Of a stretch of 30,657 nt of DNA, positions 27,227 through 27,520 are shown in pieces (within the stretch, counting starts at the first letter, position 1; each line of letters begins with the position of its first letter). A model generated the notes under the pieces. It ran no database searches. It was not told the DNA's origin and was given only the letters and a program-made list of their open reading frames with translations. The stretch spans positions 1-30,657 of the forward strand of contig CAXHJY010000863.1 in NCBI GenBank assembly GCA_964016885.1, written 5' to 3'. The stretch is from Eledone cirrhosa. Lineage: Eukaryota. The position numbers and the translations under genes are program-made.

Positions 27227-27520
27227 TATACTTGGGGAGGGTCATATTTGTGTAATAATATTGCCAGAATTAATAACAGAACACACTCACTGTTTGGTTG
27301 GTTTGGTTTTCGCTTCTGTGTCTTTTATATCAGTTAATTTAATTTATTCGGTCCTCAGTCAAAAATACAGATACAATATAGACACAAACACATATATATA
27401 TAGCCTAACAAAGTTCTATCGTTGCACATCTGCAACATCGTCAGTGGTGCTATTATGTTGCCACCCGTTGTATTGTATGCCTACGCCTCGTAAACCTCGC
27501 AAAACTAATTCATCGCCGTT
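27227..27520 (-). mobile_element. Family A element abutting (TA)n
   Basis: tatacttggggagggtcat terminus; hammerhead motif ~180 bp inside; inner boundary approximate. Confidence 0.7.
27407..27448 (-). ncRNA. Minimal type-I hammerhead-like motif, family A (GAUA core variant)
   Basis: acca-CTGACGA-t-GTTGCA-gatg-TGCAAC-GATA-gaac-TT-tgtt. Confidence 0.65.

Follow-up and report, generated by a model that had tools for sequence, protein, structure and literature searches.

An abundant family of Penelope-type minimal hammerheads in Eledone cirrhosa, with a probable mutation of one copy at core position 14

The 30,657-nt stretch of Eledone cirrhosa DNA analysed here (the window) carries four minimal type I hammerhead motifs, copies A, B, C and D, and two of them, A and D, read GAUA at the place of the core box GAAA. 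We found that GAUA is not the consensus of the subfamily to which copy D belongs. Instead, the U at position 14 of this copy most likely arose after insertion, in a copy whose close relatives carry GAAA, a reading to which we assign a probability of about 0.85. Copies A and D are most likely mutated descendants of a minimal hammerhead of Penelope-like elements and not intact members.

Four motifs on three insertions

The features of the window that the analysis rests on are the following.

4715..4962, + strand: copy A, body of a more degraded relative; hammerhead motif at 4739-4783 with C3 at 4743, CUGAAGA-U, stem II GUCACA/UGUGAC at 4751-4768 and GAUA at 4769-4772 (U14 at 4771), then GAAU-UU; decayed, with one U-G among the 3 bp of stem I, with 15.2-16.2 as G-U and with an end motif whose C run is expanded
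13989..14290, - strand: copy B, the left-hand arm of a pair of inverted copies; its motif, at about 14219-14267, has the canonical GAAA, C3 at 14262 and stem II GUUACA/UGUGAC; the tail from 14075 reads as 29 amino acids
14320..14545, + strand: copy C, right arm of the inverted pair of copy B, without a tail; GAAA motif at 14342-14388 with C3 at 14347 and stem II GUCACA/UGUGAC
27227..27487, - strand: copy D, body, a 5'-truncated end repeat running into (TA)n; ATGACCC motif starting at 27245
27407..27448, - strand: copy D, minimal type I hammerhead motif found by descriptor and alignment
27444 to 27418, - strand: copy D core, CUGACGA-U with C3 at 27444, N7 at 27440 and the extra U after A9 at 27437; G12 at 27420 and position 14 at 27418, GAUA then GAAC-UU
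27436-27431/27426-27421, - strand: copy D stem II, GUUGCA/UGCAAC
27417 to 27410, - strand: copy D 3' core, A15.1 at 27417, U16.1 at 27412 and H17 at 27411, with the predicted cut between 27411 and 27410
27418, - strand: U14, a letter private to copy D where its relatives read A (GAAA)
27488..27522, + strand: a stub of the 3' tail of the family in inverted orientation, attached to the 5' end of copy D and reading as 11 amino acids
6258..6405, + strand: copy E, a short stub without hammerhead, with a tiny (12-base) inverted end at 6258-6270, the end motif from 6361 and a partial tail
27528..27712, + strand: short interspersed repeat, separate from the element, with a second copy at 28708-28886 (85% identical)

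By searching the window with a loose descriptor, in which position 14 could be any base and a 6-bp stem II, a stem III pair and UH were required, we recovered exactly copies A-D. In 300 local shuffles the same descriptor gave a mean of 0.07 and a maximum of 2 matches, and four were reached in none of them. All four copies have a CUGANGA box separated from stem II by a single unpaired base, and this stem, of 6 bp, opens with G10.1-C11.1 and is paired in 100% of its cells; an A15.1-U16.1 pair, a paired 15.2-16.2 and a UH cleavage site are also present in all four. The GAAA box is present in B and C and absent from A and D. Thus, the four motifs, their stem II pairs and the GATA followed by GAAY-UU in A and D stand as a sequence-only reading of the window had described them.

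Outside the core the copies are less uniform. Stem I has 5 bp in B and C, 3 bp in A, and 2 bp followed by a C-U mismatch in D; among A, B and C, the unpaired cells are all in stem I of copy A. The outer pairs of helix III fit a palindrome around two central bases that are GA or AA, and the hexamer homodimer, computed for C and D, has an energy of -1.7 and +1.4 kcal/mol, respectively. The lowest-energy folds predicted for A and D differ from the hammerhead fold. Focused Rfam scans of the motifs gave no hammerhead match (0 hits, and two chance snoRNA hits), and no hammerhead was found among the best 150 of the 233 matches over the whole window, which, as far as listed, were mostly microsatellite-driven miRNA matches and all below the gathering score. 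It had been predicted that standard descriptors would miss the GAUA variant, and Rfam indeed missed these motifs, even a GAAA copy.

Copies B and C are 93.6% alike over 235 columns, form the two arms of a single inverted insertion and point outward from a common 5' junction; hence, the four motifs represent three independent insertions. From G12 to ATGACCC we measured 168, 160, 150 and 175 bases upstream for A, B, C and D, close to the 160-180 bp inside a shared terminus that had been proposed. The word terminus has to be amended, given that in copies B and E a tail comes after this motif, which probably starts a reading frame. The pair at 14040-14550 is young-looking; both of its GAAA hammerheads are intact, with a 5-bp stem I and an AGGACU helix III, and they are the window's best candidates for a cleavage assay.

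An inverted copy at the 5' end together with 5' truncation was found for the B/C pair and for the stubs of D and E, and none was seen for A. The tail is present on B and E, and C and the body of D are without it. Ends in (TA)n were found for B, C, D and E (on both sides of E), not clearly for A. The D stub matches the tail of B (3/2000 shuffles as good, versus 1697/2000 on the opposite strand), and the partial tail of E, which reads as 16 amino acids, also matches (0/2000 shuffles as good). In public reads, the joint between the end of D and its stub, from 27228 to 27492 on opposite strands, was spanned by 719 reads with 36 starts, and beyond 27487 relatives continue unlike the window (33,169 loose ends). 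We discounted another joint, from 27402 back to 27228, which is likely to be a (TA)n artefact.

An ATG opens the shared end motif, and the reading frame from it continues through the tail in B, E and the D stub. The frame occupies 14075-13989 (-), 6361-6405 (+) and 27490-27522 (+), and the peptide is similar across these three diverged copies. From this arrangement, the end motif is likely to be the first codons of the element's gene, lying inside the end repeat. The 30-residue tail peptide found only two matches among 1.84 billion proteins, both to unrelated repeat proteins, and no usable Atlas match. Pfam searches on 18 of the 167 long frames gave no Penelope-type domain, only zf-RVT and zf-CCHC matches elsewhere in the window, and among these 18 frames neither a reverse transcriptase nor a GIY-YIG gene could be tied to the end repeats, whose copies are truncated. 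The identity of the host element rests on architecture. Penelope-like elements are described as heavily 5'-truncated, as having a tail at one end and as carrying an inverted copy at their 5' terminus (PMC8557442; PMC11167929). The inverted 5' junctions, the tail on one arm only and the (TA)n targets follow this insertion pattern, so the host is likely a Penelope-like retroelement. Recently active Penelope-like families are reported from Octopus vulgaris in PMC13282606, the accessible part of which does not mention hammerheads.

The window is AT-rich and animal-like, with simple repeats covering 14,998 of its 30,657 bases. Apart from the hammerhead family, it contains two copies of a LINE-like 3' region (16365-17390 and 20630-21971, 93% alike over 801 columns, with zf-RVT matches) and a zf-CCHC frame at 18324-18839. 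Partial copies of the short interspersed repeat at 27528-27712, which presumably is an octopod SINE given its resemblance to one, lie near 5885, 9502, 24784 and 29015. By eye, two segments at about 29955-30030 (+) and 30095-30165 (-) look tRNA-like, with apparent A and B boxes; the two segments lie in opposite orientation, about 65 bases apart, and ARAGORN found no gene in the window, these segments included. Long inverted repeats at 10566-10681, 19379-19734, 19852-20132 and 1946-2213, one of which closes over a (TA)n loop, are possibly other inverted insertions or miniature transposons.

Position 14 in the relatives of copy D

The sequence-only reading had suggested that GAUA may be an inherited core variant, to be checked by asking whether GATA is the subfamily consensus. 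Public data were matched onto 27228-27525 at a likeness of at least 80%. Of the 23 runs listed, four were used, comprising same-species contigs, same-species raw reduced-representation reads and contigs of two other species; no RNA run was among the 23, and runs with a small share were left aside. In the raw reads, all from a single library with 206 start places and not equivalent to independent loci, position 14 (27418) is A in 195,052 of 197,069 (99.0%). In the same-species contigs, it is A in 434,779.7 of 434,821.1 of the depth (99.99%, 100 contigs), depth not being copy number. The one covering contig from each of the two other species also reads A. All other letters together thus amount to at most 2,017 of the 197,069 reads (1.0%) and 41.4 of contig depth. 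Since the reference itself carries U14, any bias would favour GAUA reads. For copy D, GATA as the subfamily consensus is therefore refuted, and GATA is at most sporadic among its relatives, which does not support an inherited variant.

The remainder at position 14 is best compared with the other letters private to D. Non-majority reads make up 3.2% at 27404, 6.1% at 27460 and 4.6% at 27463, so that the 1.0% at position 14, lower than at any of these three sites, is at background level. Among the sites listed, D differs from the GAAA majority at four with at least 90% support. The read pool is mixed, varying at N7 (8.8%), at H17 (9.6%, U to A) and in loop III (6.1%), and 16.2 changes from C to U in 5.7% of reads with a G-U pair kept. 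The 3' side of stem I varies in 40% and 51% of reads. No other core position varies at 5% or more among the positions listed. Among the + mates, 126/345 carry a stem II change at 27424 and 336/339 read A14, so the group with the 27424 variant is also GAAA. Changes from A to T or T to A account for 13 of the 43 places listed in the raw reads.

We propose that the masters of the family would carry a GAAA minimal type I hammerhead with a very short (2-bp) stem III, and that cleavage of their transcript would require a dimer or the assistance of the element's protein, as in reports on other Penelope-like elements. The activity of such minimal motifs is reported to be low (PMC4209133) or protein-assisted (PMC11167929). 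Selection on the masters would preserve the core, whereas inserted fragments, such as copy D, presumably without a promoter, would decay neutrally. According to the available text of PMC4075628, mutation of A14 lowers hammerhead activity more than 100-fold, and A14G abolishes cleavage in PMC4889925. Given that published A14 changes cut activity this strongly, copy D is probably inactive. For A14U itself we found no measured value in the accessible parts of the literature, including PMC9901934 and PMC11014351, the data cited being for A14 generally and for A14G.

For copy A, the U14 would most likely be a second, independent A-to-T change. Copy A carries a stem II like that of B and C, with four letters unlike D, and common descent of U14 would hence need several reversals: either A reverted four stem letters, or the subfamily of D reverted everywhere except in D. 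Two independent changes are the simpler account, which we infer and which is the weakest part of the preferred reading. Against it, a rare change would have struck two of three independent insertions. If the rate is taken as 0.5-1% in D and as 2-8% in A, the chance of a shared change at any core site is 0.1-3%, low but plausible in a scan that selects oddities.

The best-surviving alternative, which we consider unlikely, is that GAUA is inherited, either in a separate subfamily of copy A or in a small branch inside the 1% of non-GAAA reads. In that case, and with the same low probability, a master would have spread with U14, A14U being tolerated or cleavage unneeded for insertion. Copies A and D share not only U14 but also the U after A9, GAAY-UU and an AACGGG..GG..AACA stretch upstream, although the 99.0% GAAA majority in the subfamily of D indicates that these shared features are not tied to U14. 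Copy A is about 73% like D over aligned body columns, so that its subfamily probably falls under the 80% cut of the read comparison; however, A shows other decay, with unpaired stem I cells and a degraded end motif. Anolis Penelope-like mutants with a dead hammerhead are reported to still insert in vitro (PMC11167929), and U13a, a U insertion in the same stretch, is an active natural variant (PMC3088659). On the other hand, Fig. S3 of PMC4209133 gives 56 representative motifs, and all the core strings printed there read GAAA, one being AGAAA. Reading GAUAG here as a U13a insertion was rejected, for it would imply a G15.1-C16.1 pair, and in the alignment of the copies GAUAG stands in register with GAAAG, with no gap.

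Less likely again is an error of the assembly consensus at U14 of D, of A or of both. The site lies inside a short A run, GAAAG; none of the eight same-species contig pieces listed covers the stretch from end to end, and in the best run only 0.53 of the sampled words are present. Errors in such runs, however, usually add or remove letters and do not put T in place of A. Moreover, copies B and C read cleanly, D carries three further private substitutions, in keeping with an aged copy, and the 41.4 of non-majority depth at 27418 in the same-species contigs may include the locus of copy D. We therefore keep to a substitution after insertion as the most probable origin of the U14 of copy D.

Stem II and the fold of the family

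Two compensatory base-pair changes had been claimed for stem II, and among copies A-D two of the six pairs are indeed changed on both sides. The four differences are all transitions, and copy B shows the U-G intermediate. On the four sequences, 95.8% of cells are paired (2/500 shuffles as good); the covariation score is reached by 10/500 shuffles and the double-changed pairs by 33/500, and the chance of four transitions landing on two pairs is 0.03. Taken alone, covariation on four sequences is weak.

The read data place these changes among the masters. The stem II of copy D is that of the subfamily majority, 27424 differing in 1.1% and 27426 in 0.4% of raw reads, and the other stem II positions are not among the variable positions listed. 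Since the stem II of D is the subfamily consensus, the compensatory changes lie between subfamily masters. Such changes among consensus families are described as a general feature of Penelope-like minimal hammerheads (PMC4209133). In the proposed scenario, stem II would drift through G-U intermediates, yielding GUCACA/UGUGAC versus GUUGCA/UGCAAC. Thus, the earlier proposal that structure has been selected is upheld in that the fold is conserved among subfamily masters and variation falls at tolerant positions, whereas its statistics, drawn from four sequences, are weak.

That stem II is an accidental DNA palindrome or the product of CG/CG decay, with no ribozyme under selection, is very improbable. 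Only three independent insertions are available and the shuffle and transition statistics above leave room for chance; Rfam is silent and neither A nor D is predicted to have the hammerhead as its lowest-energy fold. But the very deep read pool gives D's stem II as the majority form, hence no decay after insertion, which also rules out CpG decay of an ancestral CG/CG stem as its source. In addition, the variation listed is found at N7, H17 and loop III and avoids the core, and the descriptor null is 0.07 per window.

Related hammerheads and what the family means

The closest known system is the set of minimal hammerheads of Penelope-like elements (Cervera and De la Pena 2014, PMC4209133), especially the Drosophila type with a small palindromic helix III. 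Both have type I topology, CUGANGA with an extra base before G10.1, the G10.1-C11.1 pair, a 6-bp stem II (GGUUGC/GCAACC in the Drosophila motifs, GUUGCA/UGCAAC in copy D), a 2-nt helix III insert and a stem I of 2-5 bp. They also have in common many truncated single copies, opposite-strand pairs and subfamilies with compensatory changes. By contrast, U14 of A and D occurs in none of its representative motifs, the two central bases of helix III here are AA or GA and so not strictly palindromic, and no coding region is linked. Like Poseidon from Anolis (Frangione et al. 2024, PMC11167929), the family has an end-repeat hammerhead, AT-rich targets, an optional tail and an insertion end inside the first codons of a reading frame. 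The start codon of Poseidon lies at stem II, whereas here the likely start is 150-175 bases after G12, and Poseidon's activity is measured and protein-assisted, while that of our family is a prediction.

Natural core variants reported by Perreault et al. (2011, PMC3088659) are U3-A8, A6C, A6a, U13a and U15.1-A16.1. U13a also gives GAU at the start of the strand, but with an inserted U and with A14 and A15.1 retained (GAUAA), whereas the present change puts U in place of A14 and is not shared by the family majority. Nor does the U14 of copy D behave as an inherited variant such as U3-A8 in Schistosoma, amounting to at most 1.0% of reads from D's subfamily. Non-LTR retrozymes (PMC7229834; bioRxiv 10.64898/2026.07.22.740005) likewise combine a type I hammerhead with a short non-coding animal repeat that is related to Penelope-like end repeats. 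A retrozyme identity was rejected, as retrozymes are head-to-tail tandems, whereas our copies are dispersed, truncated and inverted, and no tandem units occur in the window.

We also searched elsewhere. The end-motif pattern gave 0 loci in metagenomes. The hammerhead pattern gave five loci in viral contigs, of which none shows all 6 bp of stem II in the printed sequence and three resemble coding sequence by eye, and 39 loci in metagenomes, none family-like by blastn at E 1e-3. By eye, most of these 39 resemble coding matches and a few resemble canonical GAAA hammerheads; no GATA match among them has both stems I and III. Five metagenome loci (L010, L020, L022, L033 and L036) are apparent GAAA hammerheads whose stem II resembles the family's, with unrelated flanks; the match lies at 451-481 in L010 and at about 601-631 in the other four.

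In the literature, no title or abstract opening described a natural A14U or GAUA hammerhead core, and none on hammerheads together with octopus described a U14 variant; content present in figures only was not visible to this search, which thus does not establish absence from print. Lunse et al. (RNA Biology, 2017) reportedly described small Penelope-associated hammerhead variants, and variant lists there could bear on novelty.

The Penelope-type minimal hammerhead is thus a known kind, in what is probably a new host family. Together, the data describe an abundant family of such hammerheads with one copy mutated, in which the reads reveal a conserved core and variation confined to tolerant positions. 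It is improbable that the subfamily of the copy with GATA at 4769 spread with U14 and constitutes a natural A14U hammerhead lineage. If it did, either A14U would be tolerated at a supposedly essential position or a Penelope-like lineage would multiply with a crippled ribozyme. The allowed core would then be wider, searches based on GAAA would undercount such ribozymes, and copy A's branch would offer a test of whether Penelope-like elements need self-cleavage to spread.
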